From an uncultured Actinomycetota bacterium (lineage in GTDB: Bacteria; Actinomycetota; Actinomycetes; CAWDCV01): a stretch of 64,000 nt of DNA. The stretch covers positions 1,060,118-1,124,117 of the forward strand of contig CAWDCV010000002.1 in the NCBI GenBank assembly GCA_963801015.1, given 5' to 3'. This document shows positions 34,317-60,793 of the stretch, piece by piece. The notes beneath the pieces were generated by a model. The model did no database searches. It saw only the letters and a program-made list of their open reading frames with translations, and was not told where the DNA came from. A program made the translations under genes and the position numbers. The stretch's first letter is position 1; each line of letters opens with the position of its first letter.

Positions 34317-34742
34317 CTACTCCAGGAGCGAACGAATCGCGCTTACCTTGGCGCGCGCATCGGTGAGCCGCTCGTCGGTGAGCGACCAGGTCTCGAGCCA
34401 CTCGCTGTCGTCCTCGCCGACTCGATCGAGCGCCTCCGCCGCGAGCGTCGGCAGGTCATCGGACAGGTCGAAGTCGGTCGATGCCAGCCAGTCGACGACC
34501 GCGTCGTCGTCGATGCCGGCGTCGTCCGGGTCGGCTGCGACCGACGCAATCACGGCAACGATCGATGCCGCCGCGACACCGCGATTGGCGTCGATCAGAT
34601 CGAGGTAGCCCTCGTTCGCCGTCACATCGAGCAACGCGTCGCGAAGCGTTCTGGGGACGTCTGCGGGGTCGAGCGGTTCCAGAATGTGAAAGAAGTCCAT
34701 GGCGTCGTCATTGCCGAACGGTGCTGCGCTCCAGGTGGCCAC
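34317..34742 (-). CDS. DUF4259 domain-containing protein
   Basis: (M/V)ATWSAAPFGNDDAMDFFHILE... is the DUF4259 N-terminal signature; acidic protein. Confidence 0.7.
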   Translation of the reverse strand: MATWSAAPFGNDDAMDFFHILEPLDPADVPRTLRDALLDVTANEGYLDLIDANRGVAAASIVAVIASVAADPDDAGIDDDAVVDWLASTDFDLSDDLPTLAAEALDRVGEDDSEWLETWSLTDERLTDARAKVSAIRSLLE

Positions 34743-34796
34743 GGAGGAATTCTCCAGGAGAAGTTACGGGGGTCGGTCATCGGGTACGGCGCTCCC

Positions 34797-36272
34797 GTGC
34801 GGAGCCTGTCCTCGCTGCTGGCCAGTGTCGCCGACGAGCGGATCGTCGTGGTCGGCGACGCCGTCCTCGACGCCTGGCTTTCGGGCCCCGCACACCGGCT
34901 ATGCCGCGAGGCGCCGGTCCCGGTAGTGAGCGTCGACCAGCGCATCACCGCTCCGGGTGGCGCGGCGAACACCGCGGCCAATGCCTCAGCGCTCGGGGCG
35001 GACGTCAGGTTCGTGTCTTTCGTGGGGCAGGACGACGACGCGCTCGCCCTGCGGCACGCGCTCGCCGTGCACGGCGTCGCGGACTCCGCGCTCCTGGGCG
35101 TACCCGGCCGCCGCACCCAGGCGAAGCGGCGGATCCTGTCCAACGGTCAGGTGCTCGCGCGCTTCGACGAGGGCGATGCCGGCGAGCCGTCCGAGCAGGT
35201 CCAGGCCGACCTGGTCGATGCGCTCCACCTTGCGCTCGCGGCGCCCGACGGCGGAGTGGACGCGCGGGTCGTGCTCGCGGCCGACTACGGCGCGGGCACG
35301 CTGACCGCGCGCGTCCGTGAGCGGCTGACGGCACTGCGCGACGAGCACGATCTCCTGCTCGTGGTCGACGCCCACGACGTGCGCCCCTGGCGCGACGTAC
35401 GGCCGACAGCCGTCACCCCGAACTGGCCGGAGACCGCCGCCCTGCTCGGCATCTCGCCGAACGTGCCGGATCGAGCGGCCTACGTGGAGGCGCACGCCGA
35501 CGACCTGCTCGCCGCGAGTGGGGCCTCGCTTGTCGTGGTCACGTTGGACGAGGACGGCGCGGTGCTGCTCGAACGGGGCCGCCCGCCGCACCGCGCGTAC
35601 ACCGAACGCATCGACCGCCCGTCGACGACCGGTGCCGGCGACTCGTTCGCCGCGGCCTTCACGCTCGCGCTCGGCGCGGGCGCCGACAGCATTACAGCGG
35701 TGGAGATCGGCGTCGCAGCAGCCTCCGTCGTCGTCCGCGAGCGCGGCACAGCCGTATGCGACATCAGCGAGCTCCAGCGTTCGCTCGGGCTCGTCGAGCG
35801 CTCGTTGCTCAGCGAGGCGGAGATGGCGTCGGCGATTGCTATGCACCGGCAGGCCGGGCGGCGCATCGTCTTCACCAACGGCTGCTTCGACGTGCTGCAT
35901 CGCGGCCACGTGACGTATCTGGAGCAGGCCAAGCGCCTCGGCGACGTCCTCGTCCTCGCGCTCAACAGCGACGACAGCGTGCGCCGGCTCAAGGGCGCTG
36001 ATCGGCCGGTCAACAGCGCCGAGGATCGCGCCGCGGTGCTCGCGGCCCTGTCGTGCGTCGACCATCTCGCGGTGTTCGACGAGGACAGTCCACGCCGCCT
36101 GCTCGAAGTCGTCCGCCCCGACCTCTACGTCAAGGGCGGCGACTACACGCCGCAGATGCTGCCGGAGGCGCCACTCGTCGAGCAGCTCGGCGGCAGCGTG
36201 CGGATCCTGCCCTACGTCGAGGATCGGTCGACGACGAGCCTGCTCGAGCGGATCCGCGCCAGCGCGCCCTGA
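34797..36272 (+). CDS. hldE: bifunctional D-glycero-beta-D-manno-heptose-7-phosphate kinase / heptose-1-phosphate adenylyltransferase (copy 1, unlinked to the heptose cluster)
   Basis: N-terminal pfkB-type sugar kinase domain (VVGDAVLDAW...TGAGDSFAAA) and C-terminal cytidylyltransferase-like domain (FTNGCFDVLHRGHVTYLEQA, RILPY); start taken at GTG 34797 because the upstream part of the track ORF overlaps the DUF4259 gene. Confidence 0.8.
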   Translation: MRSLSSLLASVADERIVVVGDAVLDAWLSGPAHRLCREAPVPVVSVDQRITAPGGAANTAANASALGADVRFVSFVGQDDDALALRHALAVHGVADSALLGVPGRRTQAKRRILSNGQVLARFDEGDAGEPSEQVQADLVDALHLALAAPDGGVDARVVLAADYGAGTLTARVRERLTALRDEHDLLLVVDAHDVRPWRDVRPTAVTPNWPETAALLGISPNVPDRAAYVEAHADDLLAASGASLVVVTLDEDGAVLLERGRPPHRAYTERIDRPSTTGAGDSFAAAFTLALGAGADSITAVEIGVAAASVVVRERGTAVCDISELQRSLGLVERSLLSEAEMASAIAMHRQAGRRIVFTNGCFDVLHRGHVTYLEQAKRLGDVLVLALNSDDSVRRLKGADRPVNSAEDRAAVLAALSCVDHLAVFDEDSPRRLLEVVRPDLYVKGGDYTPQMLPEAPLVEQLGGSVRILPYVEDRSTTSLLERIRASAP

Positions 36273-36288
36273 TGGTGACGCGCCTCCT

Positions 36289-36359
36289 GGTCGTGTAGAT
36301 CGTCGTGAAGCTTTAGCACGATCCCGAGCGCCGGGATGCTCACGACGATCTACACGACC
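36289..36359. terminator. 19-bp perfect inverted repeat (ggtcgtgtagatcgtcgtg ... cacgacgatctacacgacc; 33-nt loop), bidirectional terminator candidate between convergent hldE and trxB-like genes
   Basis: Seen directly; it fills the entire 88-nt convergent intergenic gap. Confidence 0.55.
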
Positions 36360-36360
36360 G

Positions 36361-38043
36361 CTACCGCGGCGCAGGAAGCGTCGCCAGGTAGCGATGCAGC
36401 AGCTGCACGGCGATCGCGCCGTCGCCGACCGCTGTCGCGACGCGCTTGACCGAGCCGCTGCGCACGTCGCCGACCGCGAACACGCCGGGCACGCTCGTCT
36501 CGAGCAGCGCCGGCGGAGGCTGCCCATCGGCGCGGACGACATCGGCGCCGCAGCGCAAGTATCCGCCCTGGTCACGCTGCAGGGCGTCGCCGAGCCAGTC
36601 GGTGTTGGGCAACGAGCCGATGAGTACGAACAACCCCGTCACCGGTTCGAAGCCGTCTGTCCCGGAATCGAGGTCGCGGATGGTGAGTCCGCCGAGCATG
36701 CCGTCTTCCTCGACGCCGCCGACAACCTCGGCGCGGTACCTGATGGTGATGTTCGGCGTACCTTCCAGCTGGCGAATCAGGTAGTCGGACATGCTCACGG
36801 CGAGCGTCGCCGAGCGGACGAGGATCGTGACGTGCGTCGCGTACTTCGCCAGGTGGATCGCCGCCTGTCCGGCGGAGTTGCCGCCACCGATGACCGCGAC
36901 CTCGCGGCCCTCCATCGCCCGTGATTCCGAGACCACGGCGCCGTAGTAGACACCGCGACCCACCAGATTCTCCAGCTCCGGGACGTCCAGCCGCCGGTAA
37001 GTCACGCCGGTGGCGATGATCACGCTACGCGCCCGTACCGTCTCCTCATCGGACAACGAGACGAGCCGCCGGTCGCCGTCCATATCGAGTCCGACGGCCT
37101 CGCGCAGCCAGAGGAACTCGGTGCCGAAGGTCCAGGCCTGCAGGAACGAGCGGAACGCGAGTTGCGCGCCGCTGATGCCGCGGGAGAAGCCCGGATAGTT
37201 GCGAATCATCGAACTGGTACCCGCCTGGCCGCCCACCGCGGCCTGCTCCACGATGACGGTGTGCAGCCCCTCGGATGCGGCGTACACGGCTGCGGCGAGG
37301 CCGGACGGACCGCCGCCGATGATGATGACGTCATACACGGTGTCCGGATCCAGCGGTTCGCCGAGTCCGAACACGTCGACGATCTCGAAGTCGGTGGGGT
37401 TGGCCAGAACGGCAGGAGGCGAGGTGAAGCGGAACACGAGGACCGGCAGCTCGGGGGAGGAGAGCCCGAGGTCCTCGAGGGCCGCCTGCCCACTCGGGGC
37501 ATCGACGTCATAGAAGCCCACGGGGATGGAATTGCGGGAGAACTGGTCCCGCAGCGTCGACGTGCGCTCGTCGTAGCGGTGGCCAATGAGGCGGACCGCC
37601 TCGAAGGCGCTGCCTTGGCCGACCTGCCAGTCGACCAGCGCGTCGTTGATGGCGGCGTGGAACTCCTCGTCGCGCGCCCGCTCGGGTCGGATGAGCGTGA
37701 GGTCAACCTGGCCAACGCCGATGGCCCGGAACACGTCTGCCGACGTGGCAAAACTGCCCCAGTTGACGGCGATCGCGCGCTTGGTCGTTCGCGAGTAGCG
37801 CGGCACGTGGGCCAGGAAGTCGATGCCGCCGCGATCCGCGTCGTTGTAGCAGGCGATGACGAGCGCTACCGGCTGGTCCTGGCGGGCGAGATCGGCGAGC
37901 AGATGCTCCGCTGCGCTGTACGTCGAGCGCGCAAGCACGGAGTACTCGACGCCGTACCGCGCCCGCAGCTCGCGCTCGAGGACGCCGCGCGACTCAGCGT
38001 CGGGCGAGGCGACGACGAGCACCGGTGTCAGCGGCTCGGTCAC
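36361..38043 (-). CDS. FAD-dependent pyridine nucleotide-disulfide oxidoreductase, thioredoxin-reductase-like C-terminal domain fused to a ~240-aa N-terminal domain of unknown function
   Basis: The C-terminal 310 aa carry TrxR-like motifs (YDVIIIGGGPSGLAAAVYAA, GGGNSAGQAA, GVFAVGDV). The N-terminal domain (MTEPLTPVLVVASPDAESRGVLERELRARYG...) resembles a receiver-like / alpha-beta fold. Confidence 0.7.
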   Translation of the reverse strand: MTEPLTPVLVVASPDAESRGVLERELRARYGVEYSVLARSTYSAAEHLLADLARQDQPVALVIACYNDADRGGIDFLAHVPRYSRTTKRAIAVNWGSFATSADVFRAIGVGQVDLTLIRPERARDEEFHAAINDALVDWQVGQGSAFEAVRLIGHRYDERTSTLRDQFSRNSIPVGFYDVDAPSGQAALEDLGLSSPELPVLVFRFTSPPAVLANPTDFEIVDVFGLGEPLDPDTVYDVIIIGGGPSGLAAAVYAASEGLHTVIVEQAAVGGQAGTSSMIRNYPGFSRGISGAQLAFRSFLQAWTFGTEFLWLREAVGLDMDGDRRLVSLSDEETVRARSVIIATGVTYRRLDVPELENLVGRGVYYGAVVSESRAMEGREVAVIGGGNSAGQAAIHLAKYATHVTILVRSATLAVSMSDYLIRQLEGTPNITIRYRAEVVGGVEEDGMLGGLTIRDLDSGTDGFEPVTGLFVLIGSLPNTDWLGDALQRDQGGYLRCGADVVRADGQPPPALLETSVPGVFAVGDVRSGSVKRVATAVGDGAIAVQLLHRYLATLPAPR

Positions 38044-38062
38044 CTGTCAGAGTGTGCCGGAA

Positions 38063-38338
38063 CTACCCGCCTTCGGGGCGCTCCTGGTCGCCCTCCTCTT
38101 CCGGCATGGCGGGCTCGCGGAACTCGGGCGCACCCTCTGCTCCGGCGTCCGGCGCCCGCAACGCGTCCAGCGTCGTGTCGTCGTCAGCGGCTTCGAAGGC
38201 CGCTTCGGTGTCCTCGACGGCTGTCTCTCCGGACGCTGTGGGGTGGGGCGGCGTTTCGGGCGGTGGATCGCTGCCCGGCACGGACTGGTCGCCGGGATCG
38301 CCGTCCCCGCCGCTGCGCATTCCCCCGGGTGCAGTCAT
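38063..38338 (-). CDS. hypothetical acidic Pro-rich small protein
   Basis: 91-aa ORF between two minus-strand genes, D/E/P-rich; low support. Confidence 0.25.
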   Translation of the reverse strand: MTAPGGMRSGGDGDPGDQSVPGSDPPPETPPHPTASGETAVEDTEAAFEAADDDTTLDALRAPDAGAEGAPEFREPAMPEEEGDQERPEGG

Positions 38339-38773
38339 TTATGCCGGCGACGCATCGGCCTGTGGCTGGGCGATGTTGACCAGCCAGTCGATGCCGTACT
38401 TGTCGGTGAACATGCCGAACTTGTCACCCCACGGCGACACGTCGAGGGGCACGGTGATGCGACCGCCTGCGGAGAGCTTCTCGTAGTAGCCGGTGAGCAG
38501 GTCGTCGTCATCTCCGCTGAGTGACATCGCCATCTGCGTCCCGATGCGGTACTCCATGCTCGCGGGCGTGTCGGCACCCATGAAGACGATGCCGTTGTCG
38601 GCGGTCAGCTGAGAATGCATGATCTTGTCGTCTTCGCTGGGGTCCTCGGACGCGTCGAACTCCTTGAACGTATTTATGTCGAGCTGGCCGCCGAAGACGC
38701 TCTGATAGAACTGCATCGCCTCGCGGGCGTTGCCCTTGAAGTTGATGTACGGGTTGAGCTTGCTCGCCATCAC
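38339..38773 (-). CDS. VOC family protein (PhnB-like glyoxalase fold)
   Basis: MMASKLNPYINFKGNAREAMQFYQSVFGG...ITVPLDVSPWGDKFGMFTDKYGIDWLVNI is typical of PhnB/VOC. Confidence 0.75.
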   Translation of the reverse strand: MMASKLNPYINFKGNAREAMQFYQSVFGGQLDINTFKEFDASEDPSEDDKIMHSQLTADNGIVFMGADTPASMEYRIGTQMAMSLSGDDDDLLTGYYEKLSAGGRITVPLDVSPWGDKFGMFTDKYGIDWLVNIAQPQADASPA

Positions 38774-38803
38774 TCCTCCTGTGCTTGCTAAGTGGGTGTT
38801 GGG

Positions 38804-39313
38804 TCAGCTCGGATCGAGCTGCAGGCGACAGTACGCCAGTTGAAGTGCGTCACTTCCGGCGAGGGCTGAGAACACCGCGGCGACAACGCGGGTCTGGCGC
38901 GGGGCCACCACGAGCCCAGCAACGAATCCGGTGGCGATCCACTGGCCTAGGCAGAACGGGCACGTGAGCAGCTCGCCGATCACGTGCTGGTGCCCGTCGC
39001 CGCGCGCCTCCTCGGACAGCTCCGCGGGCCCGCCGACGCCGCGGTAGCGCGTGAACGGCGCCCGCAACGGGCTCGTGATGTTGGCCCGGCTGATGAGGCG
39101 ACTGAGCTTGTGCGTCGCCACGGTGACGAGGGCCAGGTCCCAGGGGCGGATGGTCTCTGGAGCGCGTACGCCGGCCTGCCGAGCGGCGGCGGCCGCCGCG
39201 GCAACCAGACCGAGGTACGTGGCCATCGCGGCGGTGTACGACGCCAGCGGCCGGTCCTCGTCCGGAGAGTAGTTGTGCGTCACGTCCTGGAGCCGGCCAG
39301 CGAGCTGTGTCAT
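38804..39313 (-). CDS. DUF1360 domain-containing membrane protein
   Basis: VATHKLSRLISRANITSPLRAPFTRY and two TM helices; DUF1360 signature. Confidence 0.65.
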   Translation of the reverse strand: MTQLAGRLQDVTHNYSPDEDRPLASYTAAMATYLGLVAAAAAAARQAGVRAPETIRPWDLALVTVATHKLSRLISRANITSPLRAPFTRYRGVGGPAELSEEARGDGHQHVIGELLTCPFCLGQWIATGFVAGLVVAPRQTRVVAAVFSALAGSDALQLAYCRLQLDPS

Positions 39314-39414
39314 GAGCCGACTTCCGTCGAAGGCACTGTCATGAGCGCACCTGTACCCGTGGCCGGAGGATGTCGAACGACCGGCGGGGCAGCTTCCCTG
39401 ACACGGATGAGGCC

Positions 39415-39439
39415 ACTGGTTCGAATCCAGTATCGCCCA
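39415..39439 (+). other. tRNA 3'-end remnant (T-arm plus acceptor 3' strand: ACTGGTTCGAATCCAGTATCGCCCA) without a matching 5' half; possible integration-site scar
   Basis: Canonical G-TTCGAAT-C T-loop with a 5-bp stem followed by a 7-nt acceptor strand and discriminator A. No complementary GGGCGAT 5' strand within 120 nt upstream; it lies in a 243-nt intergenic gap. Confidence 0.55.
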
Positions 39440-39556
39440 CTGATAGTCGGCCTTGTCAGGCCGCGTTGCCGGACTACCGGTCCTCCTGGATCCGTAAAGG
39501 TGCAGCCGATGGCTCGCTTGGTGCCCTCCGGTAGAGAACCAGCTTTGATTATCAGG

Positions 39557-39982
39557 TCAGGTCGTCCCGGTGTACTCGTGATCGGTGACGTGCTCGAGCC
39601 AGGTCACGACCCGGCCGTGGTCGTCGGCTTCCTGCATGGCGACGTGGGCCATGAACCGGTCGGGTGTGGCGCCGTGCCAGTGCTCCTCGTCGGGTTCGAT
39701 GTAGACGACGTCTCCGGGTCGGATCTCGACGATCTCGCCGCCTCGGTAGGAGACGAGCCCGATCCCGTCGGTGACGTACAGCGTCTGACCCTTGGGATGG
39801 GAGTGCCAGGCGGTGCGGGCGCCTGGGGTGAACCGGACGTGGGCGCAGCCGATGGCGGACTGGTCGTCGGGGTTCCGGATGGTGTCGATGTAGACGTCTC
39901 CGGTGAACCAGTCAGCCGGCCCTTCTCCGGTCTGTCCTCCGCTGTGCGTGATCTTCACGTGCGTCTCCTGGTGGGCTGGCAA
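39557..39982 (-). CDS. cupin domain-containing protein
   Basis: Cupin motifs (AWHSHPKGQTLYVTDG...PGDVVYIEPDEEHWHGA). Confidence 0.75.
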   Translation of the reverse strand: MPAHQETHVKITHSGGQTGEGPADWFTGDVYIDTIRNPDDQSAIGCAHVRFTPGARTAWHSHPKGQTLYVTDGIGLVSYRGGEIVEIRPGDVVYIEPDEEHWHGATPDRFMAHVAMQEADDHGRVVTWLEHVTDHEYTGTT

Positions 39983-40001
39983 AGCGACGGGGCCAGAGGT
40001 C

Positions 40002-40375
40002 TTACTGGGCGGTGTAGCCGCCGTCGACGGGGAGGGCGACGCCGATGACGAAGCCGGCCCCCGGACTGCTCAGCCACAGCACCGAGGCCGCGATCTCCTC
40101 AGACGTGCCGAGCCGGTTGATGGGCTGGTTCGCCTTGGCGACCTCAAGGTCAAGTTCGCCTTTGTCGATCATGTCAGTGACCATCGGGGTGGCGATGGTG
40201 CCGGGACAGATAGCGTTGATCAGGATTCCGCGGGGGGCGTACTCGAGGGCCGCGCTGCGGGTGAGGCCGATGACGCCGTGCGGGCGGCGGCCAGACCCAT
40301 GCCGGAGCTGGCGCCGGTCACCAGCGCGACCTGGCCGGAGAAGTCATACGTCGGGTTCATCATCGAGCCTCTCAG
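40002..40375 (-). pseudogene. SDR family oxidoreductase remnant with internal deletion (~120 codons missing, frame broken)
   Basis: N-terminus MMNPTYDFSGQVALVTGASSGMGLAAAR (Rossmann TGxxxGxG) is joined directly, in a different frame, to the C-terminal ...HGVIGLTRSAALEYAPRGILINAICPGTIATPMVTDMIDKG...GRLGTSEEIAASVLWLSSPGAGFVIGVALPVDGGYTAQ*. The catalytic middle region is absent. Confidence 0.75.
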
Positions 40376-41403
40376 CTGGGTGCGGGTGAGGGTTGGAGGA
40401 GGACCTTGATGGCCTGACGCTGGTCCATGGCGGTGTAGGCGTCGGCGGCCTGGTCCAGCGGCAGGGTGAGGTCGAAGACCCGGCCGGGGTTGATCGTGCG
40501 GTTCCAGATCCGGTCGATCAGGTCGGGTAGGAACCGGCGGATTGGGGCGGGGCCGCCGTGGACGTGGACGTGGGTCATGAAGATGTCGTCGCCGGCGATG
40601 GCGACGTCATGGAGGACGCCGACGAAGCCGAGGTGCCCGCCGGGGCGGGTGGCGCCGATGGCCTGCATCATCGACTCCTGCGTTCCGACGGCCTCGACGA
40701 CCGAGTGTGCGCCGAGTCCGTCGGTGAGCTCCTTGACCTTGGCGATCCCGGCTTCGCCGCGTTCCTCGACGATGTCGGTGGCGCCGAACTCCCGCGCGAG
40801 GGCCTGCCGGTCGGCGTGCCGGGACATGGCGATGATGCGCTCGGCGCCGAGCTCCTTGGCGGCCAGGACGGCGAGCAGCCCGACGGCCCCGTCACCGACC
40901 ACGGCGACGGTCTTGCCCGGTCCGGCCTCGGCCGCCACGGCCCCGAACCAGCCGGTGCCCAGCACATCGGAGGCGGCCAGCAGGCTGGGAATCAGGTCCG
41001 CATCCGGCTGGCCCGGGGTGGCGACGAGCGTGCCGTCGGCCAACGGCACCCGCATCAGCTGCGCCTGCGACGGACCCGGGAAGTCGCGGTGGACGCAGTT
41101 GGTCTGATAGCCGGCCTGGCAGATCTCGCAGGTGTTGTCGGAGGCGAAGAACGACCCGACCACGAAGTCGCCGACCTTGACCTGCTCGACCTGGTCGCCG
41201 ACCTGCTCGACGACACCGACGTACTCATGCCCCATCGGTTTCGGCTCGTTGACGGCGTCGGCGCCGCGGTAGGGCCACAGGTCCGATCCGCAGACACACG
41301 CCGCGGCGAGCCGGATGATCGCATCCGTCGGCTGCTGGATCGTCGGCTCGGGCAGGTCCTCGACCCGGACATCACCGGGGGCATGCATCACAACACCACG
41401 CAT
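40372..41403 (-). CDS. zinc-dependent alcohol dehydrogenase family protein (MDR superfamily; formaldehyde/threonine dehydrogenase-like)
   Basis: GHEYVGVV zinc site, structural-zinc Cys cluster (CEICQAGYQTNC), VVGDGAVG NAD-binding motif. Confidence 0.8.
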   Translation of the reverse strand: MRGVVMHAPGDVRVEDLPEPTIQQPTDAIIRLAAACVCGSDLWPYRGADAVNEPKPMGHEYVGVVEQVGDQVEQVKVGDFVVGSFFASDNTCEICQAGYQTNCVHRDFPGPSQAQLMRVPLADGTLVATPGQPDADLIPSLLAASDVLGTGWFGAVAAEAGPGKTVAVVGDGAVGLLAVLAAKELGAERIIAMSRHADRQALAREFGATDIVEERGEAGIAKVKELTDGLGAHSVVEAVGTQESMMQAIGATRPGGHLGFVGVLHDVAIAGDDIFMTHVHVHGGPAPIRRFLPDLIDRIWNRTINPGRVFDLTLPLDQAADAYTAMDQRQAIKVLLQPSPAPS

Positions 41404-41475
41404 CAGCGGGCCAACTCCTTGAAAGATCGGATTTGTGCGGGAACTGACCCCCAGTCAACCCCCGCCGACGACGAT

Positions 41476-41517
41476 GTGGGATGCCCTGTCGTGGGGTGTA
41501 CCACCAGGGCATCCCAC
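41476..41517. promoter_or_regulatory. 13-bp perfect palindrome arms (gtgggatgccctg N16 cagggcatcccac) in the divergent promoter region between the ADH gene and the MmyB-like regulator; candidate operator
   Basis: Seen directly; 33 nt upstream of the regulator start codon. Confidence 0.4.
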
Positions 41518-41549
41518 GTTCACGGCCCGGCGTCGTAGCGTCGTATGTC

Positions 41550-42431
41550 GTGGACAACCGTGACGAGGTCCGCGAGTTCCTCATCTCGCGGCGAGCCAAG
41601 ATCACCCCGGCTGAAGCCGGCCTGCCGACCCACGGCGCTCGGCGGGTACCCGGGCTGCGCCGGGCCGAGGTTGCGGCGCTGGCCGGGGTCAGCGTCGAGT
41701 ATTACGCCAAGCTCGAACGCGGCACGATCGCCGGTGCCTCCGCGTCCGTGCTCGACGCGATCGCCCGCGCCCTCCGGCTCGACGACGCTGAACGCGCCCA
41801 CCTGTTCCATCTCGCCCACGCCGCCGACGGCACCATCGCCAGCATGCGGCCCCGCCGAACCCCGAAACGCTGGCAACCCCGGCCGAGCCTGCAATGGGTG
41901 CTCGATGACTTCACCGCCCCGGCGATCGTCCGCAACGGCCGGATGGACCTGCTCGCCGCCAACCACCTCGGCCGAGCCATGCACGCCACCGTCTACGAGG
42001 CGACGGGCGACCCGGTGCCGAACTTCGTCCGGTTCACCTTCCTGCACCTCGACGACGCCGACGACTTCTACTCCGACTGGGACCTCGCCGCCGACACCAG
42101 CGTCGCCATCCTGCACACCGAAGCCGGCCGCGACCCGCACGACAAAGATCTGCACGACCTCGTCGGCGAGCTGTCCACCCGCAGCGACGACTTCCGGCGC
42201 CGCTGGAGCAGCCGCAACGTCCGCAGCCACGGCGCCGGCACCAAACAGTTCCACCACCGCGACGTCGGCGACCTCGAGCTCGCCTACGAGAGCCTGGACA
42301 TGATCGCCGATCCCGGACTCACCCTCACCCTCTACGCCGCCGAACCAGGCTCGCCCACCGCCAGCGCCCTCGCCCTGCTGGCTTCCTGGTCCAGCCCCAC
42401 CGTCACACCGTCACCGACCGCCACCTTGTGA
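41550..42431 (+). CDS. MmyB-like helix-turn-helix transcriptional regulator
   Basis: VDNRDEVREFLISRRAKITPAEAGLP...RRVPGLRRAEVAALAGVSVEYYAKLERG (XRE HTH) plus the MmyB-like ligand-binding C-terminal domain (AIVRNGRMDLLAANHLGRA...). Confidence 0.8.
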   Translation: MDNRDEVREFLISRRAKITPAEAGLPTHGARRVPGLRRAEVAALAGVSVEYYAKLERGTIAGASASVLDAIARALRLDDAERAHLFHLAHAADGTIASMRPRRTPKRWQPRPSLQWVLDDFTAPAIVRNGRMDLLAANHLGRAMHATVYEATGDPVPNFVRFTFLHLDDADDFYSDWDLAADTSVAILHTEAGRDPHDKDLHDLVGELSTRSDDFRRRWSSRNVRSHGAGTKQFHHRDVGDLELAYESLDMIADPGLTLTLYAAEPGSPTASALALLASWSSPTVTPSPTATL

Positions 42432-42569
42432 GATCCGCGCCGCGGGCTGGGTGTACCAGCGGTACGTGCCAGGCCAGGGTGTTCCTCACCACATGGGACG
42501 CTCCTGGCGTCGACGACGTGTGCTTCAGCACCCAGGCGAGCGCGATGGCCGCCATGGAGGGCTGTGTAC

Positions 42570-43340
42570 CTCAGGCTTGCGAGGTGGGCATGGCCCACAG
42601 CTCGGCCACCGACGAGCGGCGGGGTCGGGTGACCATGTAGGTGATGCCATCGGCGATATCCTCGGGCTGCAGCGGTTCGGGATGTTCTCGGCGTCGGAGG
42701 CGGCGAGGTTGTCACGGATCTGCTGGTTGTTGTGGGAGACAAGCTCGGTAGCCACGGCGCCGGGCTCGAGGACGCCGACGCGTACGTGCTTCTTCGTGAC
42801 CTCTTGACGGAGGGCCTCGGTGAAGCCGTTTACGCCGAACTTCGTCATGTTGTAGACGCCGAAGTTCGCCCAGGCCTGGCGGCCGGCGATCGAGGAGATG
42901 TTCACGATGTCGGCGACTCCGCGCGGCCCGTCCTGTGCTGCGGTCAGCAGGTGCGGGAGGGCGGCGTGGGTGACGTAGAGCAGGCCTTTCTGGTTGATCG
43001 CGATCATCCGTTCCCATTCCTCGATGTCGGCGCTGGCTACAGGGCCCAGCAGCATTAGTCCGGCGTTGTTGATGAGGATGTCGAGCCGGCCGAAACGGTC
43101 CACGACGGTTTGTACGGCCTGCTCGGCCTGGGCCCGGTCGGTGATGTCCGCCTCGACGGCCAACACCGTCGCGCCGGTCGCCTCGATCTCGGACACGAGG
43201 GTGTCCAGCCGGTCTTTGCGGCGAGCGAGGACGGCGACGCTCGCGCCGTGCTCGGCGAGCCGGCGAGCGGTCGCCTCCCCGATGCCGCTGCTGGCCCCGG
43301 TCACGATCGCGACCGTCCCGGTCAGCGTGGTGATGTTCAT
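42570..43340 (-). pseudogene. SDR family oxidoreductase with apparent frameshift near 42679 (C-terminal ~35 aa in the adjacent frame)
   Basis: MNITTLTGTVAIVTGASSGIGEA..., YxxxK active site (YNMTKFG); the expected C-terminus EPLQPEDIADGITYMVTRPRRSSVAELWAMPTSQA* is read in the -1 frame after a ccc/ggg run where one more base is expected. Confidence 0.75.
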
Positions 43341-44182
43341 GAGGCGTCGTAAGCCAGCGAGGCCGACAGGTCGCGGTGGGCGTCGATCTGGCCCTGGATC
43401 GTTGCCAGGTTCTGCTCGACCCCGGTCATCACATCGGCGCCGGCGAGGAAGCGCAGTGGCAGGTCGCCGGAGTCGGACAGGGTGACGAGTGCGGAGGCGA
43501 GCTTGCTCGGGTCGCCGCCCTGCTGGCCGTTCATTCCTTTCCACGCCGTGATGGTCTGTGCGGTGCGCTCGGCGTAGTCCGCGATGTCCAGCTCGGGCCA
43601 GATCGTCGACGACCCCTCGACCAGCAGTTCGGTGCGGAAGAAGCCGGGCTCGACCGCCATCGTCGTGATGCCGTACGGGGCGACGTCGTAGCGCAGCGAC
43701 TCCATCCAGCCCTCGAGGGCGAACTTCGACGGGGCGTACGCGGCGCAGAACTCCTGCCCCATCAGCCCGGCGGCCGAGGTCACCGTGATCACCTGCCCGG
43801 AACGCTGTGCACGCATGATCGGCAGGACCGCCCGGGTGACGTTGAGCGGACCGAAGAAGTTGGTCTCCATCTGCGCCCGCAGCTGCTCGGGGCTGATGTT
43901 CTCGAAGTAGCCGGCGTAGAAGTTGCCTGCGTTGTTCACCAGGACGTCGATACGTCCGAAACGCTCGACCGCCGCCTGGACGGCCGCGTCGATCGTGGCC
44001 GGGTTGGTGACGTCCAGGGCGACGGCGAACAGCTCCTCATGCTCACCGACCGCAGCCCGCACCTTGTCGGCATCACGGCCGGTCGCGACCACGGCGTGGC
44101 CGCCGGCCAGCGCGGCCCGCACGATGTCGACGCCCAGGCCACGGCTGGAGCCGGTGACGAACCAGACCTTCTTCTCACTCAT
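43337..44182 (-). CDS. SDR family oxidoreductase
   Basis: MSEKKVWFVTGSSRGLG..., NNAG motif, YAPSKFA catalytic Tyr/Lys; the stop overlaps the start of the downstream SDR by 4 nt. Confidence 0.8.
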   Translation of the reverse strand: MSEKKVWFVTGSSRGLGVDIVRAALAGGHAVVATGRDADKVRAAVGEHEELFAVALDVTNPATIDAAVQAAVERFGRIDVLVNNAGNFYAGYFENISPEQLRAQMETNFFGPLNVTRAVLPIMRAQRSGQVITVTSAAGLMGQEFCAAYAPSKFALEGWMESLRYDVAPYGITTMAVEPGFFRTELLVEGSSTIWPELDIADYAERTAQTITAWKGMNGQQGGDPSKLASALVTLSDSGDLPLRFLAGADVMTGVEQNLATIQGQIDAHRDLSASLAYDAS

Positions 44183-44344
44183 AGGTTGTCCTTCAGCTGG
44201 TGAAGGTCGGTGTCTGGATGACGCCCGACCCCGACCGGTGGGTGCTTTCAGTGAATCCGCTCGCATCACGTCGAGGGAGACCCGCGTTATAGGGGTACTC
44301 CTGGTGACCCCTTCGGCTCGGACTGCCGCCGTAGGCTCCCGGAC

Positions 44345-45250
44345 ATGGACGTCCGGCAGGACCTGCGCGAGTTCCTCACCACGAGGCGTGCCCGGCTCGC
44401 TCCGCAGGACGTGGGGCTGCCCGACTTCGGCGGACGTCGCCGCGTCCCCGGCCTGCGACGCGAGGAGGTCGCGCTGGTGGCCGGAGTGAGCGTCGAGTAC
44501 TACGTCCGCCTCGAACGCGGCAACGCCACCGGGATCTCAGAATCCGTGCTCGACGGCGTCGCCCGAGCCCTCCAGCTCGACGACGCCGAACGCGCCCACC
44601 TGTACGGACTCGTCCGGGCCGCGAACGACGGCGCCCACCCCAGCAAGCGTCGCACCCGTCCCCGATCCCAACCGGTCCGTCCCGGCGTGCAGCAGCTGCT
44701 CGACGCCATCGAGAACGTGCCCGCGATCGTGCAGAACGGACGCCTGGACGTCCTCGCGGCCAACCGGCTCGGACGGACCCTATTCTCCGAGCTCCACGAA
44801 CACGCGCCGGCCAACTTCGCCCGCTACGTCTTTCTCGACCCGCGCGCCCAGATCTTCTACCGCAGTTGGCCCGACGCCGCCCAGCAGACCGCCGCCATCC
44901 TCCGCACCGAAGCCGGACGGGTGCCGCACGACCGCGCGCTTAGCGACCTCGTCGGCGAACTCGCCACCCGCAGCGAGGACTTCCGGGCCCTCTGGGCCTC
45001 CCACGACGTCCGCGACCACCGCACCGGCAGGAAGTCGATCACCCACCCAGTCGTCGGCGACCTCGACCTCGACTACGAGCTGATGGACCTGACCACCGAC
45101 CGCGGACTCACCCTCATCACCTACACCGCAGCGCCTGGCTCCGCGTCGCACGATGGACTCCGACTCCTCAGCAGCTGGACCATGCCCGATCACGCGACCA
45201 GAAGGGACCAGACGACGCCCGTCGACGGGAGCCGACTCGAGAGCCAATGA
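44345..45250 (+). CDS. MmyB-like helix-turn-helix transcriptional regulator (paralog)
   Basis: MDVRQDLREFLTTRRARLAPQDVGLPDFGGRRRVPGLRREEVALVAGVSVEYYVRLERG; about 45% identical by eye to the regulator at 41550. Confidence 0.8.
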   Translation: MDVRQDLREFLTTRRARLAPQDVGLPDFGGRRRVPGLRREEVALVAGVSVEYYVRLERGNATGISESVLDGVARALQLDDAERAHLYGLVRAANDGAHPSKRRTRPRSQPVRPGVQQLLDAIENVPAIVQNGRLDVLAANRLGRTLFSELHEHAPANFARYVFLDPRAQIFYRSWPDAAQQTAAILRTEAGRVPHDRALSDLVGELATRSEDFRALWASHDVRDHRTGRKSITHPVVGDLDLDYELMDLTTDRGLTLITYTAAPGSASHDGLRLLSSWTMPDHATRRDQTTPVDGSRLESQ

Positions 45251-45660
45251 CTATGGCCCTGGTCGACTGCAGGCGAACGTTGCCGTACGGAATCTGGCGG
45301 ACGGGTTTTGCGCCCACCGCAACAGAGGCGTCGCTTACACGGAAGAGCCTGTTCGAACAGCTGCCGGAGGCCACCTTGGCTGCGGTCGTGATCGCAGCCG
45401 TCATCGAGCTCGTCGACATCCCCGCCCTGGTGCGGCTGTACCGAGTCTGGACCGGCAACCTCGGCGGCATCTACGGCTGGGCTGCCCGGGCGGACGTCCT
45501 CTCAGCGCTGGCCGCGATGCTCGGCGTGCTGGTCTTCGACACCCTCCCCGGCCTGTTCATCGGCATCGGCGTCTCACTGCTCCTGCTGCTCTACCGGGCT
45601 TCCCGACCCACGTTGCCCGCCTCGTCCGCGGTGGGGAGCCCGGTATCTGGGTCGACCTCC
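45247..45660 (+). pseudogene. SulP-family anion transporter fragment (internal TM region only)
   Basis: ...LPEATLAAVVIAAVIELVDIPALVRLYRVWT...VLSALAAMLGVLVFDTLPGLFIGIGVSLLLLLYRASRP matches the distal TM helices of SulP permeases. There is no N-terminal core and no STAS domain; the downstream continuation of the ORF is antisense to the LLM gene. Confidence 0.4.
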
Positions 45661-45678
45661 AGCCCAGCCCGCCGCCGA

Positions 45679-46587
45679 TCAGCCGCGGCGCAGCTGGCTC
45701 AGCAGCGGGAGCTGGCGGAGCGGTTCGTCGTCGGTGTTCCAGTAGATGTGCTCGATACCCAGTCGCGCGGCCCGGTCGAGGTCGGCGGCAACCTGGTCGG
45801 GCGACCCGAGCAGCGGTCCGCGCTCGTCCAGTGGCTCAGCGGTGACGTTGCCGTTCACCTGAAGCATGACCGGCAGCGTGTCGGGATCGTGACCGGCGTC
45901 CCTGGCCGCGGCACGGAAGGTCTCGACGCTGGCCTCGACCGCGTCCCAGTCGAAGATCACCAGGGTGAGTCCGACACCGAGACGCCCGACGCGCTCGAGC
46001 GCCGCCGGTGAACCGGCGCCCAACACCAGGCGTGGGCCATCACGGTGGACCGGCTTCGGTCCGATATCAGCTTCGGGGATGCGGTAGAAGCGGCCCTCGA
46101 AGCGCACCGGATCAGGGCCCCAGATCGCTCGCATGGCCGACAGATGCTCCTCGAAGCCTGCGCCGCGCCGCCGCATCGAGACGCCGGCGGCCTCGAACTC
46201 CTGCTCCATCCAGCCCTGACCGATACCGGCGATGAGTCGACCGTCGCTCAACCGGTCCAGCGTGGCGAGCCGACGAGCAAGGATGACCGGGCTCTGAAAC
46301 AGCGCGTCAAGCACGCTGGTGCCCACGGTGATGCGGTGGGTCCGAGCCGCGACGTAGCTGAGCGTCTCGATCGGGTCGTACACGGTCCCGAAGTCCTCGG
46401 GCGCCTCCATCACCGGCCCGCCCTCGCCCCCCATGGCGATCGGGACGGTCGGCCGCATGAGACGCTCCCAGGACCACACCGAGTCCAACCCGATCCGTTC
46501 GGCCTCCTCCGCGACCTGCGCGATGGCTTCCGGTGAGGCACCGCGCCCCGCCACCGGAAGGTGCACGCCCAGCTTGATCGACGACAT
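45679..46587 (-). CDS. LLM class F420-dependent oxidoreductase (luciferase-like monooxygenase family)
   Basis: GAGGAGG RBS then ATG 46587; MSSIKLGVHLPVAG... TIM-barrel LLM signature. Confidence 0.8.
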   Translation of the reverse strand: MSSIKLGVHLPVAGRGASPEAIAQVAEEAERIGLDSVWSWERLMRPTVPIAMGGEGGPVMEAPEDFGTVYDPIETLSYVAARTHRITVGTSVLDALFQSPVILARRLATLDRLSDGRLIAGIGQGWMEQEFEAAGVSMRRRGAGFEEHLSAMRAIWGPDPVRFEGRFYRIPEADIGPKPVHRDGPRLVLGAGSPAALERVGRLGVGLTLVIFDWDAVEASVETFRAAARDAGHDPDTLPVMLQVNGNVTAEPLDERGPLLGSPDQVAADLDRAARLGIEHIYWNTDDEPLRQLPLLSQLRRG

Positions 46588-46693
46588 CTGGTCCTCCTCG
46601 TCGTTTCCTACTGCGGAAGACCTGCTCCGCCGCCGCTTCTCATCGGTCCGCGCCGCCCTGGAAGCTGAATCGTGGTGGACCATACTGGGGTTC

Positions 46694-46903
46694 ATGACCC
46701 ACCCCGTCCCTCCCGGGCCAGATCCGGGTCCTGTCCCACCCTCGCCGGTGCCACCGGGCCCCCCAGGACCACCTGTTCCCGACCCCACGCCGCCCACCCC
46801 GACGCCGCCGATGCCGGGGCCGGGTCCTGACCCGATCCCGCCGGATCCGCTGCCGCCGCAGCCCGGTCCTGAGCCGGGGCCGTCGCCGGTTCCGGGGTTC
46901 TAG
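46694..46903 (+). CDS. hypothetical proline-rich small protein (69 aa)
   Basis: ATG ORF MTHPVPPGPDPGPVPPSPVPPGPPGPP...; its stop lies 11 nt before the downstream FAD-oxidoreductase start. It may be an artefact of GC-rich low-complexity DNA. Confidence 0.25.
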   Translation: MTHPVPPGPDPGPVPPSPVPPGPPGPPVPDPTPPTPTPPMPGPGPDPIPPDPLPPQPGPEPGPSPVPGF

Positions 46904-46914
46904 GGCGAACCGCG

Positions 46915-48507
46915 ATGTACGACGCTGACGCGGTCGTCGTCGGTGCCGGCCAGAACGGGTTGGTTGCCGCCAACCTGCTGGCCGATGCCGGGTGGAAGGT
47001 CACCGTCCTCGAGGAGCAGCCGCTTCCGGGCGGCGCTGTGCGCAGCGCCGACGATGTGACGGCGCCCGGCTATTCGACCGACCTCTTCAGTGCGTTCTAC
47101 CCACTCGGCGCCGCGTCGCCGGTGCTGCGCGAGCTGCACCTCGAGGCGTACGGCCTCACCTGGCGGCACGCGCCCCTCGTCCTCGCCCACGCCTTCGAGG
47201 ACGGGCGCGCCGCGCTGCTGAGCCGCGACCCGGAGGAGACCGCAGCCTCGCTCGAGACCTTTGCTGCATCCGATGGTGAGACGTGGATGCGGCTCGTCGA
47301 CCAATGGGCAGAGATCGGTCCGACCGTGGTCGAGGCGCTGCTGCGACCGTTCCCGCCGGTGCGGCCGGTAGCGTCGCTGGCGCGACGACTGGGGGTCGCC
47401 GACGGGATCCGGCTCGCGCGGCTCGGAATCACCCCGGTGCGCTCGTACGCCCAGGAGGAGTTCGCTGGCGAAGGCGCCCGGGTTTTGCTGGCCGGCAACG
47501 CGCTGCACAGCGACATGTCGCCGGAGAACGCGGGCAGTGGGTTTCTCGGTTGGCTGCTCACGTTGCTCGGCCAGGACGTCGGCTTCCCCGTGCCGGAAGG
47601 CGGCTCGAGCCGGATCATCGATGCGCTGGTGCAGCGGCTAGCCGCGCGCGGGGTCACCGTGCAGTGCTCGACGCCGGTGCGGGGAGTGATCGTTCGAGAC
47701 GGACGAGCCGTCGGCGTCCGCGTGGCCGACGGCTCCGAGGTGCGGGCCCGGCGGGCAGTGCTTGCCGATGTCACGGCGCCGGCGCTGTTCCGCGACCTGG
47801 TGGGCTACGACCTCCTGCCGAGCCGGTTCGTGTCCGACCTGCGTCGTTTCCAGTGGGACAGCGCAATTCTCAAGGTGAACTGGGCGCTGTCCGGGCCGAT
47901 CCCCTGGAAGGCGTCGGAGGTCTCTCGCGCGGGAACCGTCCATCTCGGCGCCGACTTCGACTCGCTCACTGACTTCGCGGCGGACCTGTCGATCGGGCGG
48001 ATCCCGCGTGATCCGTTCCTGCTGTTCGGCCAGATGACCACCTCCGACCCGACTCGCTCGCCGGCCGGGACGGAGTCGGCGTGGTCGTACACGCACCTGC
48101 CGCACCAACGCACCTTGACGTCGGACGAAGTCGCGGGGCACGCCGATCTCATGGAGACGGTCGTCGAGCGGGTGGCGCCGGGGTTTCGCGACCTGATCGT
48201 CGGCCGGTACGTCCAGGGCCCTGGAGACCTGCAGTCGGCCGACGCCAACCTGTCCGGTGGCGCCGTCAATGGGGGGACAGCAGCGCTGCACCAGCAGCTG
48301 GTGTTCCGTCCGGTGCCCGGCCTGTCGCGTCCGGAGACGCCGATCGACGGGTTGTTCCTTGCCAGCGCCTCGGCGCATCCGGGCGGGGCGGTGCACGGAG
48401 CCTGCGGGGCGAACGCCGCGCACGCGGCCCTGGCGCGAGCGAAGTGGTACGGCCGCGCCTACAACGCCGGTTGGCGTGCGGCCGGCCGGGCCGTCTGGGG
48501 CCGCTGA
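46915..48507 (+). CDS. NAD(P)/FAD-dependent oxidoreductase (phytoene desaturase/amine oxidase family)
   Basis: MYDADAVVVGAGQNGLVAANLLADAGWKVTVLEEQPLPGGAVRS Rossmann motif and a CrtI-like C-terminal region. Confidence 0.8.
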   Translation: MYDADAVVVGAGQNGLVAANLLADAGWKVTVLEEQPLPGGAVRSADDVTAPGYSTDLFSAFYPLGAASPVLRELHLEAYGLTWRHAPLVLAHAFEDGRAALLSRDPEETAASLETFAASDGETWMRLVDQWAEIGPTVVEALLRPFPPVRPVASLARRLGVADGIRLARLGITPVRSYAQEEFAGEGARVLLAGNALHSDMSPENAGSGFLGWLLTLLGQDVGFPVPEGGSSRIIDALVQRLAARGVTVQCSTPVRGVIVRDGRAVGVRVADGSEVRARRAVLADVTAPALFRDLVGYDLLPSRFVSDLRRFQWDSAILKVNWALSGPIPWKASEVSRAGTVHLGADFDSLTDFAADLSIGRIPRDPFLLFGQMTTSDPTRSPAGTESAWSYTHLPHQRTLTSDEVAGHADLMETVVERVAPGFRDLIVGRYVQGPGDLQSADANLSGGAVNGGTAALHQQLVFRPVPGLSRPETPIDGLFLASASAHPGGAVHGACGANAAHAALARAKWYGRAYNAGWRAAGRAVWGR

Positions 48508-48521
48508 CCGGCGACTCGGCG

Positions 48522-49139
48522 CTAGTCGTACATGTCGAGCGCGATCAGCCCCTGGACCTGGATGTGCTGACGCTGGTCGCGCATCTGCTGCGCCCCTTCC
48601 TCCGCAGTCACGCCGACCTCCTGGGGAAAGTTCGAGGGCGTCGCCACCACGCGACCGACGAACGACACGATGTCGCCAGGCTCGACCTTGTACGGCGACT
48701 CGACACCAACGTCGACCAGCTGCACCCAGACCCGGTTAGTCGTGTTGTCGCCGAGCCAGAAGCCCTCGTTGGCCGGCACCGACTCCACCCGGACCCGGTC
48801 GGCGACGGCCTCGCCACCGGCGAAGCGGGACAGATCGCCGCCCGGCCCGGCGTACTCGGCCAGCGGAAACACCGGCTCGCCGTCCACCGTCAGCCTCCCG
48901 GTCTCCCCTGGCACGATCACCGCAGGCGCCGACGTCGGGCTGACAATCGACGTCACCGTGGGCTCGGGGTCCGGCTGCACGACCACCTCGTCGCCACGGC
49001 GGGTCAGCGAGATCAGCCAGAGCAGGAGCAGCGCGAGCAACAGCAAGAGAAAGATGACAGCTGCGGCCGGGCGATCGTCATACTCGTCCTCCTCGGTCGT
49101 CGTGACAACGACGTCGGGATCGCGCCGGAAGAGGCTCAC
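48522..49139 (-). CDS. hypothetical membrane-anchored protein (single N-terminal TM helix, extracytoplasmic domain)
   Basis: 205-aa ORF with an acidic N-terminus, TM helix AAVIFLLLLLALLLLWLISL and a beta-rich C-terminal domain. Confidence 0.55.
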   Translation of the reverse strand: MSLFRRDPDVVVTTTEEDEYDDRPAAAVIFLLLLLALLLLWLISLTRRGDEVVVQPDPEPTVTSIVSPTSAPAVIVPGETGRLTVDGEPVFPLAEYAGPGGDLSRFAGGEAVADRVRVESVPANEGFWLGDNTTNRVWVQLVDVGVESPYKVEPGDIVSFVGRVVATPSNFPQEVGVTAEEGAQQMRDQRQHIQVQGLIALDMYD

Positions 49140-49145
49140 GAGGCG

Positions 49146-49616: not shown

Positions 49617-49883
49617 CGTCTCCCTCGCTCCTACCCCGCCGCGATGATCCCATGATCGCCCACGCCGGCTTTACGAGAAGTTCTCGGCGAAAGCGTTTCC
49701 CCGAAACGTTCGCGGGGCACGACTTCTTCTCGGCAGTTCTTCTCGGCACATCCACGGCGGTACCGCTTCGGACATAGGCGCTCCGCGACGCAATTGGCCT
49801 CACGAGGGCGCTTGACCACGGAGAACGCATTGGCGCAGCCGAATACATGCGGGGCGGCCGGGGCGCGGCCGCGGCCACAGCTC

Positions 49884-55602: not shown

Positions 55603-55666
55603 CTCTGCATCCCGCCTACCTCCATCGACTGCGCTCCAGCTGTGTGCTCGCGACGGAGGTCGGCTC

Positions 55667-60694: not shown

Positions 60695-60793
60695 GCCTCG
60701 GCCGCTACCCGCGCCCGCCAAGGCGAAACAGAGGTGAAACGGTGGCGGCAGCATGGCGGCATGAGACCTCGACGAACGGGAAGGCGTGTGGGC

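Follow-up and report, generated by a model that had tools for sequence, protein, structure and literature searches.

Genes and features of the locus

The window, that is, the whole stretch of DNA analysed here, is 64 kb in length. Its features around the locus are listed below in window coordinates.

38804-39313, minus strand: DUF1360 gene; native left flank, 79-98% identical in relatives
39314-39391, no strand: left-flank spacer of native origin, upstream of DUF1360; homology to relatives extends to 39388-39391
39392-46690, no strand: lineage-specific insert of ~7.3 kb; missing from four related lineages
39392-39439, plus strand: orphan 3' part of a tRNA-Val(GAC) gene; 48 nt, tRNA positions about 27-73
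39393-39409, plus strand: anticodon arm CTTCC-CTGACAC-GGATG; anticodon GAC (Val) at 39400-39402
39410-39414, plus strand: variable loop AGGCC
39415-39431, plus strand: T-arm ACTGG-TTCGAAT-CCAGT
39432-39438, plus strand: acceptor 3' strand ATCGCCC
39439, plus strand: discriminator A; followed by CTG, not CCA
39440-39556, no strand: spacer from the tRNA fragment to the cupin stop codon; 117 nt, homologue found nowhere
39557-39982, minus strand: Cupin_2 protein (Pfam); first cargo gene
40002-40363, minus strand: SDR pseudogene; 409-nt internal deletion
40372-41403, minus strand: Zn-dependent alcohol dehydrogenase (Pfam); cargo
41481-42431, plus strand: MmyB-like HTH regulator 1 (Pfam); cargo
42525-43322, minus strand: SDR (Pfam); cargo
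43337-44269, minus strand: SDR (Pfam); cargo, likely start 44182
44345-45250, plus strand: MmyB-like HTH regulator 2 (Pfam); cargo, repeat families D1, D2 and D9
45343-45450, plus strand: SulP sulfate permease remnant, C-terminal membrane part; ~36 codons, in a 428-nt gap
45679-46587, minus strand: luciferase-like monooxygenase (Pfam); last cargo gene
46588-46693, no strand: non-coding right end of the insert, up to the ATG at 46694
46694-46903, plus strand: conserved 69-aa proline-rich ORF; native right flank, homology with all empty relatives resumes exactly at its ATG
46915-48507: amine oxidase; native right flank, after the proline-rich ORF

The DUF1360 and cupin genes are both on the minus strand and, as the first-pass annotation had described, a gap of 243 nt (39314-39556) separates them. 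That annotation had noticed in the gap a 25-nt tRNA T-arm and acceptor 3' strand lacking any 5' half. The 25-mer, ACTGGTTCGAATCCAGTATCGCCCA, is present at 39415-39439 on the plus strand; it occurs once in the window, and shuffled sequences gave an expectation of 0 matches. The tRNA-like stretch is longer, it begins at 39392 and reads GCTTCC into the anticodon arm. Judged from its sequence, 39392-39439 is confirmed as part of a tRNA-Val(GAC) gene, of which the 3' two-thirds are present and the acceptor 5' strand and D-arm are missing. Compared over positions 27-74 to the tRNA-Val(GAC) of one Actinomycetota MAG (L087), which is intact and forms the last gene of a Gly-Cys-Val cluster, 46 of the 48 nucleotides are identical, in agreement with the earlier suggestion of a Val/Ala-type acceptor. 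One difference (A>T) breaks an anticodon-stem pair; the other (T>C) is located in the variable loop.

The Rfam tRNA model aligned to 39387-39439 with the D-arm deleted; the 22 bits obtained (E 0.035 in a 451-nt search) fall short of the gathering score, 29. That the model spans a whole tRNA is made possible by 4 bp of pseudo-acceptor pairing (GGGC/GCCC) to the host flank. ARAGORN gave no tRNA call at 39392-39439, and in the window it called only tRNA-Arg and tRNA-Ser, at 16-17.5 kb. Of the parts that a functional tRNA-Val requires, the acceptor 5' strand and the D-arm are missing, and what precedes 39392 is host spacer that is conserved. Neither promoter nor terminator patterns were detected around the fragment. 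The 48-nt tRNA-Val piece is a non-functional relic. The sub-threshold Rfam score and the GGGC/GCCC pairing would also fit a resemblance by chance, or a tRNA-like RNA with a function of its own, for instance as a T-arm mimic in regulation, but both are exceedingly improbable: the identity to a real tRNA-Val(GAC) includes the anticodon loop, the sequence is conserved in no relative and has accumulated the anticodon-stem mismatch, and no other Rfam family matched. Throughout the window, Rfam revealed no other tRNA relic.

The same stretch was delimited independently by blastn against phage and plasmid tRNA genes, in which query 8-56, corresponding to window 39392-39440, was aligned. In the phage and plasmid searches, the fragment matched tRNA genes only, with the exception of one attP from Nonomuraea; the scan of viral contigs gave 0 matches. 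A scan of GTDB species genomes with a 43-mer (2 N) yielded a single match, the L087 tRNA-Val(GAC) gene in its unrelated MAG, which is of use as a reference only; the pattern was probably too strict for the tRNA-Val genes of the host clade.

The insert and its native flanks

Among metagenomic relatives, the DUF1360 protein is 98, 96, 88, 86, 83 and 79% identical, followed by 62% for the next one. Four lineages (L001/2/3, L005/6, L093/94 and L095) are free of the insert. In these empty lineages, a spacer of 60-100 nt leads from the DUF1360 start codon to a conserved proline-rich ORF of 69-71 aa, and next comes an amine oxidase of 530 aa. The blastn alignments of the L001/2/3/5/6 contigs jump from window position ~39290 to 46693/46694, and L093, L094 and L095 have an empty spacer at the insert site. 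L001, a 16.5-kb contig, aligns collinearly to 34365-39286 at the left and to 46694-55911 at the right of the insert, which it does not have. As L001 is collinear on both sides, both flanks are native and the window carries ~7.3 kb extra. None of the relatives lacking the insert has a tRNA in the spacer between the DUF1360 gene and the proline-rich ORF. The site in the relatives is a plain spacer; therefore, no tRNA gene was split here, and the fragment was imported with the insert. An insert that splits an ADP-heptose gene cluster was also considered and was rejected, since L001 shows the same flanking order without the insert; one suspected frameshifted second hldE was rejected as well, the gene being intact.

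In the junction alignments, the left synteny breakpoint (39391|39392) coincides with the 5' end of the tRNA fragment. Homology ends at 39388 for the closest relative, L004, whose blastn alignment covers window 39338-39388 in the left spacer, and at 39391 for the empty lineages; the left spacer also contains one near-tandem duplication of 29 nt (39314-39342). For this uncultured actinomycete from soil, the fragment is thus a precise marker of where the 7.3-kb accessory block begins on the left. The first-pass annotation had taken the region for the eroded edge of a former genomic island. The kind of structure is retained, as the fragment sits at the breakpoint of a decaying segment; its geometry and extent have to be revised. 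The suggested variable region of 38.0-40.4 kb is replaced by 39392-~46690, to the right of the fragment. The VOC and DUF1360 genes, which had been regarded as accessory genes of the island, are conserved and syntenic in all of the related lineages that were sampled.

Which half of an att site a fragment represents can be read from the position of the variable DNA relative to it. With the variable DNA on its 3' side, the fragment has the geometry of an element-borne (attP/attL-side) copy and not of a displaced attR scar. For a canonical displaced fragment, the island is on the 5' side (PMC4383910). It could be supposed that the fragment is a displaced attR piece of a large left-hand island whose intact tRNA-Val lies outside the window, over 39 kb upstream. 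The 5' side of the fragment would then face the island in the canonical orientation, and a distant partner is conceivable, as there is no tRNA-Val in the window. However, 34365-39286 is collinear with the fragment-free L001, and the missing DNA is the right-hand 39392-46690, making such a left-hand island very unlikely.

The insert has the largest tetranucleotide distance among all 7.3-kb windows; its GC3 is the same as that of the flanks. The cupin gene probably starts at the GTG at 39958, giving 133 aa as in the homologues, none of which exceeds 91% identity; they are dispersed widely over the actinomycetes. An SDR gene with a non-triplet deletion had been reported in the first-pass annotation. 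The deletion is real; the gene is not immediately downstream of the tRNA piece, since the cupin gene lies between them, and the missing part is larger than the ~120 codons given. Compared to one intact 255-aa homologue, 409 nt are missing, which corresponds to ~136 codons plus 1 nt; intact homologues located beside cupin genes on other soil contigs show this loss. In the pseudogene, the 28 N-terminal codons (MMNPTYDFSGQVALVTGASSGMGLAAAR, which includes TGxxxGxG) continue in another frame into HGVIGLTRSAALEYA...GGYTAQ*; the 3' segment starts right after the catalytic YxxxK motif, and the Pfam profile is covered at positions 1-18 and 150-236 only. The SulP remnant matches PF00916 at profile positions 334-370 (E 2.4e-4, under the gathering score). 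MmyB-like regulator 2 is a paralogue of MmyB-like regulator 1. The luciferase-like gene has its true start at MSSIKLGVH, behind the ribosome-binding site GAGGAGGA.

The relatives of the insert genes are 70-91% identical and are distributed across many soil actinomycetes, where the genes for the cupin, MmyB regulator, ADH and SDR are often clustered together. In ~80 metagenomic cupin loci, none has a tRNA-Val adjoining the cupin gene, and neither do two long contigs; homology past the cupin stop codon was found in none of the ~80 loci. Taken together, the insert is shown to be a foreign, decaying accessory block.

Junctions of the closest relatives and the right end

The two closest relatives, L004 (98% identity of DUF1360, 94% at the DNA level) and L092 (96%), share the spacer of the window up to the same junction and then diverge; they carry genes for one YCII protein and one ECF-type sigma factor, neither of which is present in the window. 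The L004/L092 lineage comes from soil samples ERZ1759139 and JGI 3300041823. Both contigs stop inside the sigma-factor gene, so that their cargo is seen only up to there. Eight bases past the junction, L092 contains TCGAATCCAGT, which is the T-loop/T-stem sequence of the window (39421-39431) in the same orientation; an 11-mer match of this type occurs in ~0.4% of comparable pieces (p about 0.004). The counterpart in L004 is TCGAAACCAG, whose similarity alone is not significant. No anticodon arm was found in L092 or L004, and the search with YCII recovered a ubiquitous family only, with at most 91% identity. Inversion, with the left end of the L092/L004 insert being homologous to the right end of the window insert, was rejected because the similarity is not significant. 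Judging from these alignments, the clade of L004, L092 and the window seems to share tRNA-derived junction sequence and to differ in cargo. A tRNA-like 11-mer together with different cargo at the same junction is what would be expected if a tRNA-type att block seeded the site.

These junctions also bear on an in-situ origin of the fragment, in which an intact tRNA-Val, either native or brought by an earlier island, stood between the DUF1360 and cupin genes and lost its 5' half together with neighbouring DNA (e.g. the YCII and sigma-factor genes). The region is deletion-prone, as illustrated by the 409-nt SDR deletion and the SulP remnant, and the closest relatives do have extra genes at the junction. 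However, the spacer is compact and tRNA-free in four lineages, the end of the deletion would have to coincide within ~3 nt with both the L004/L092 junction and the breakpoint of the empty sites, and L092 and L004 lack the anticodon arm. We therefore regard in-situ truncation as improbable.

At the right end of the insert, no direct repeat of the tRNA block exists, and Rfam gave no tRNA match. The minus strand contains, 5 nt inward from the junction, the sequence CCAGTATGGTCCACCA (46673-46688), in which 14 of 16 positions agree with the canonical tRNA-Val 3' end. Five bases beyond CCAGTATGGTCCACCA, CAGCTTCC (46660-46667, minus strand) is a copy of the 8-mer of the left junction. The empirical p is 0.002-0.012 for the CCAGTATGGTCCACCA match and 0.006 for the pair of CCAGTATGGTCCACCA and CAGCTTCC. 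As a sequence resemblance, the tRNA-Val-like match at the right end is marginal and may be called suggestive. CCAGTATGGTCCACCA and CAGCTTCC are inverted and out of order, and thus they do not form the usual att duplicate.

Origin of the fragment and comparison with known systems

Tyrosine integrases that target tRNA genes duplicate the tRNA stretch from the first anticodon-stem base to the discriminator, and the element's own attP copy normally completes the target tRNA after integration. In the window, two of the features by which Islander recognises islands are seen. The fragment borders DNA that is missing from related genomes (breakpoint 39388-39391, four lineages), and it is nearly identical to the 3' part of tRNA-Val(GAC), with the anticodon loop CTGACAC included. 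As for an intact cognate tDNA, there is no tRNA-Val in the 64 kb, at the right end of the insert or at the site in the relatives. In a Pfam search of all sizeable ORFs of the 64 kb, no integrase, excisionase, recombinase, transposase, replication or transfer genes were identified. The AICE signature genes int, rep and traB/FtsK-like are absent from the insert. Signs of a prophage were likewise absent: the cargo consists of oxidoreductases and regulators, and the phage collection was matched at tRNA genes only. The direct duplicate that an integrase would leave, as proposed in the first-pass annotation, could not be upheld, there being neither a second direct copy of the fragment nor an intact tRNA-Val or integrase in the 64-kb window. 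When the empty spacers were aligned with the tRNA core as possible pseudo-attB sites, the scores were no better than those of shuffles (p about 0.7); by eye, GGTTCC/GGTTCG of the empty sites resembles GCTTCC of the fragment. The region qualifies as no more than an orphan att block or a remnant that has decayed completely.

The explanation we prefer, at an evenly balanced probability, is that the fragment is the element-borne attachment-site block of an element with a tRNA-Val-targeting tyrosine integrase, which landed at a non-tRNA site and decayed. One integrative element, an actinomycete AICE or a prophage-like one, would have carried the 48-nt block as the tRNA-identical core of its attP; the partner of this attP in the recombination would have been a secondary site of non-tRNA sequence, within the short spacer that separates DUF1360 from the divergent operon of proline-rich ORF and amine oxidase. 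Recombination of this kind would join the host flank directly to the tRNA block and place the body of the element on the 3' side of the block. Just past such a block, an integrase gene and further genes for mobility are normally located; these would later have been lost, leaving regulators and oxidoreductases as a residue of cargo that is itself eroding. The action of an integrase at the joint, the secondary nature of the site and the former presence of mobility genes are inferred.

Several observations favour such an attachment-site block. The near-identity to a real tRNA-Val(GAC) extends exactly from position 27 to the 3' end; the first base of the fragment is the synteny breakpoint; in four lineages the spacer is uninterrupted and free of tRNA; and the insert is decaying and has the most deviant composition in the window. 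The 5' limit of the fragment at the first base of the anticodon stem, as in the Nonomuraea attP block, points in the same direction. The 46-nt repeats of Streptomyces tRNA-Val AICEs and the frequent loss of int and rep provide one further parallel (PMC9513070). On the other side, mobility genes are absent from the 64 kb and the right end lacks a direct repeat of the block; the cargo genes also cluster in many unrelated soil actinomycetes, and the relatives of the cupin gene have no tRNA next to them. The probability is held at about even because there is no trace of an integrase, the empty spacers do not resemble the tRNA core, and the cargo is of an ordinary chromosomal type.

The main competing explanation involves no integrase: a 7.3-kb piece of a donor actinomycete chromosome, starting by chance inside a tRNA-Val(GAC) gene, would have entered the spacer through end-joining or some other illegitimate recombination. 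Mobility genes and a flanking direct repeat, neither of which was found, would not be needed for such a capture, nor would the pseudo-attB signal, which was not seen in the empty sites. Cupin, MmyB regulator, ADH and SDR genes form a recurrent chromosomal neighbourhood in dozens of metagenomic loci, and the GC3 of the insert is that of the host; both are in line with random capture. However, the break falls at the first anticodon-stem base, which is the 5' limit of a bona fide attP block, and the length of the fragment fits the 46-nt repeats of the tRNA-Val AICEs (PMC9513070). The donor arrangement it calls for, with tRNA-Val beside the cupin gene, is seen in 0 of ~80 cupin loci. In addition, one event of capture does not predict that sister lineages have other cargo and a tRNA-like 11-mer at the junction. 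We consider random capture unlikely, although it has a substantial share of the probability.

One further reading can be considered, namely that the imported fragment acts, or acted, as a portable attachment site, by which the spacer became an integration hotspot reusable by tRNA-Val-specific elements. We regard this reading as doubtful. It would explain why L004 and L092 switch to entirely different cargo at an identical position, following a tRNA-like remnant that is shorter, and it would also explain the possible trace of a rearranged, inverted tDNA end at the right border. A portable site, if true, would show how new integration hotspots arise; its present support is thin.

That 3' fragments of tDNA mark the ends of genomic islands is known, and anticodon-centred attP sites (the 'A' sublocation of Williams 2002) are the commonest class (PMC4383910). 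Like Islander-type islands, the window has a piece from the anticodon arm to the 3' end at a strain-specific border, and 48 nt is a typical length. Different from them, no intact cognate tDNA, integrase or second direct copy was found, the insertion site in the relatives is not a tRNA gene, and the island is on the 3' side of the fragment. An orphan tRNA fragment need not mark a former tRNA target; it can travel with an island into an ordinary spacer, and islands of this kind would escape algorithms that look for a fragment and its cognate tRNA as a pair.

In Streptomyces, AICEs of the AICE03 type integrate in tRNA-Val and make 46-nt direct repeats; AICEs often decay by loss of int and rep, leaving cargo and repeats (DAICEs) (PMC9513070). 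AICE03 and the DAICEs share with the window an actinomycete host, the tRNA-Val target and an almost equal length of the repeat. The described DAICEs are still located at a tRNA gene between two repeats and are recognised by traB (PMC9513070), whereas the window has no traB, rep or int and one tDNA block only.

The 'plasmid III' of Nonomuraea gerenzanensis (NZ_LT559120, 59 kb, circular; L090) contains a tRNA-Val 3' block and no intact tRNA. As in the window, the block extends from the first anticodon-stem base to the 3' end, with the body of the element on the 3' side. Different from that in the window, it belongs to the Val(CAC) type, with 83% identity across the 48 nt, and CCA is kept. In L090, the gene for a site-specific integrase follows ~50 nt after the tRNA block; in the window, the cupin gene is found there. 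By comparison with L090, 39440-39556 would be the place where the integrase gene of an intact element is expected.

Integration of phages or ICEs at secondary sites (pseudo-attB) would explain how an attP-derived block comes to lie on non-tRNA host DNA; different from such events, the empty sites have no significant similarity to the core, and the right end has no recognisable attR-type joint. Partial tRNA genes are already established as landmarks of islands (PMC4383910; PMC9897764), and in this respect the present finding is ordinary; what may be the uncommon twist is the location in a non-tRNA spacer, possibly a small hotspot of cargo turnover.

Junction sequences at the two borders of the insert

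Just within the right border of the ~7.3-kb lineage-specific insert, two short sequences recall its left edge, where the orphan tRNA-Val(GAC) 3′ fragment is located. CCAGTATGGTCCACCA (window 46673-46688, minus strand) agrees with the canonical 3′ end of tRNA-Val in 14 of 16 positions, with an empirical p of 0.002-0.012; CAGCTTCC (46660-46667, minus strand) is identical to the left-junction 8-mer at 39390-39397. The two are separated by 5 bases, and the empirical p for the pair is 0.006. Their orientation is inverted and their order is wrong.

The left junction is occupied in L092 and L004, the closest metagenomic relatives, by genes for a YCII protein and an ECF sigma factor in place of the cupin cluster; both contigs stop short of the end of their island. 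This cargo is preceded by TCGAATCCAGT in L092 and by TCGAAACCAG in L004 (junctions L092 322-345 and L004 990-1010, reverse strand), each of which is possibly a tRNA remnant reaching from the T-loop to the 3′ end.

The left spacer carries a near-tandem duplication of 29 nt (window 39314-39342) at the start codon of the DUF1360 gene, in which TGTCATGAGC is present twice. One copy is L092-like and the other is L004-like; the duplication creates an extra upstream ATG, which is out of frame.

Gene decay and a second indel

The insert contains a second decayed gene, which sits within a 428-nt non-coding gap:
45343-45450, plus strand, orphan remnant of a SulP sulfate permease, last membrane segment (PF00916 positions 334-370, E 2.4e-4)

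Decay was also noticed in L088, the contig whose cupin is the most similar (91%). Upstream of this cupin (L088 1077-1885), the ADH gene exists as fragments only and the SDR gene is absent; a second ADH copy, located downstream, is intact. The cupin/ADH/SDR operon seems to be decaying independently in L088 too.

The native right flank opens with a short ORF, which has no Pfam family and is kept in all related lineages (71 aa in L001):
46694-46903, plus strand, extremely proline-rich ORF of 69 aa, directly upstream of the amine oxidase gene

On the left flank, a gene for an ArAE/FUSC-type membrane protein lies between the DUF1360 and VOC genes in two lineages without the insert (L001, 10586-11770; L005, 1615-2811); it is missing in the window, L004, L093 and L095. 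The presence or absence of this gene is a second indel of the neighbourhood.

Other loci in the window and a replicon of Nonomuraea

Further loci of the window are as follows:
11946-13052, minus strand, DUF222 protein of the 13E12-repeat type, 26 kb from the tRNA fragment
34686-36272 and 49656-57303, apparent ADP-heptose glycan cluster
60281-61252, minus strand, ORF with a DUF2795 domain
60608-61885, plus strand, bacterial archaeo-eukaryotic release-factor family 2 (baeRF) protein, overlapping the DUF2795 ORF

The actinomycete locus at 34686-36272 and 49656-57303 encodes two HldE-type bifunctional kinase/adenylyltransferases, GmhA (SIS), a GmhB-like HAD phosphatase, two GT9 heptosyltransferases and GT4 glycosyltransferases. 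It looks like an ADP-heptose glycan cluster, and is conserved in L001.

Members of the 13E12-repeat type DUF222 family are frequently fused to HNH endonucleases; apart from the DUF222 gene, no gene of the window shows any connection with mobile DNA. On 'plasmid III' of Nonomuraea gerenzanensis, a circular replicon of 59 kb, a tRNA-Val(CAC) 3′ block adjoins an integrase gene (NZ_LT559120.1, 33866-34154), whose annotation is split into a 63-aa product and hypothetical proteins; this region is probably the attP-int of a temperate phage or integrative plasmid.
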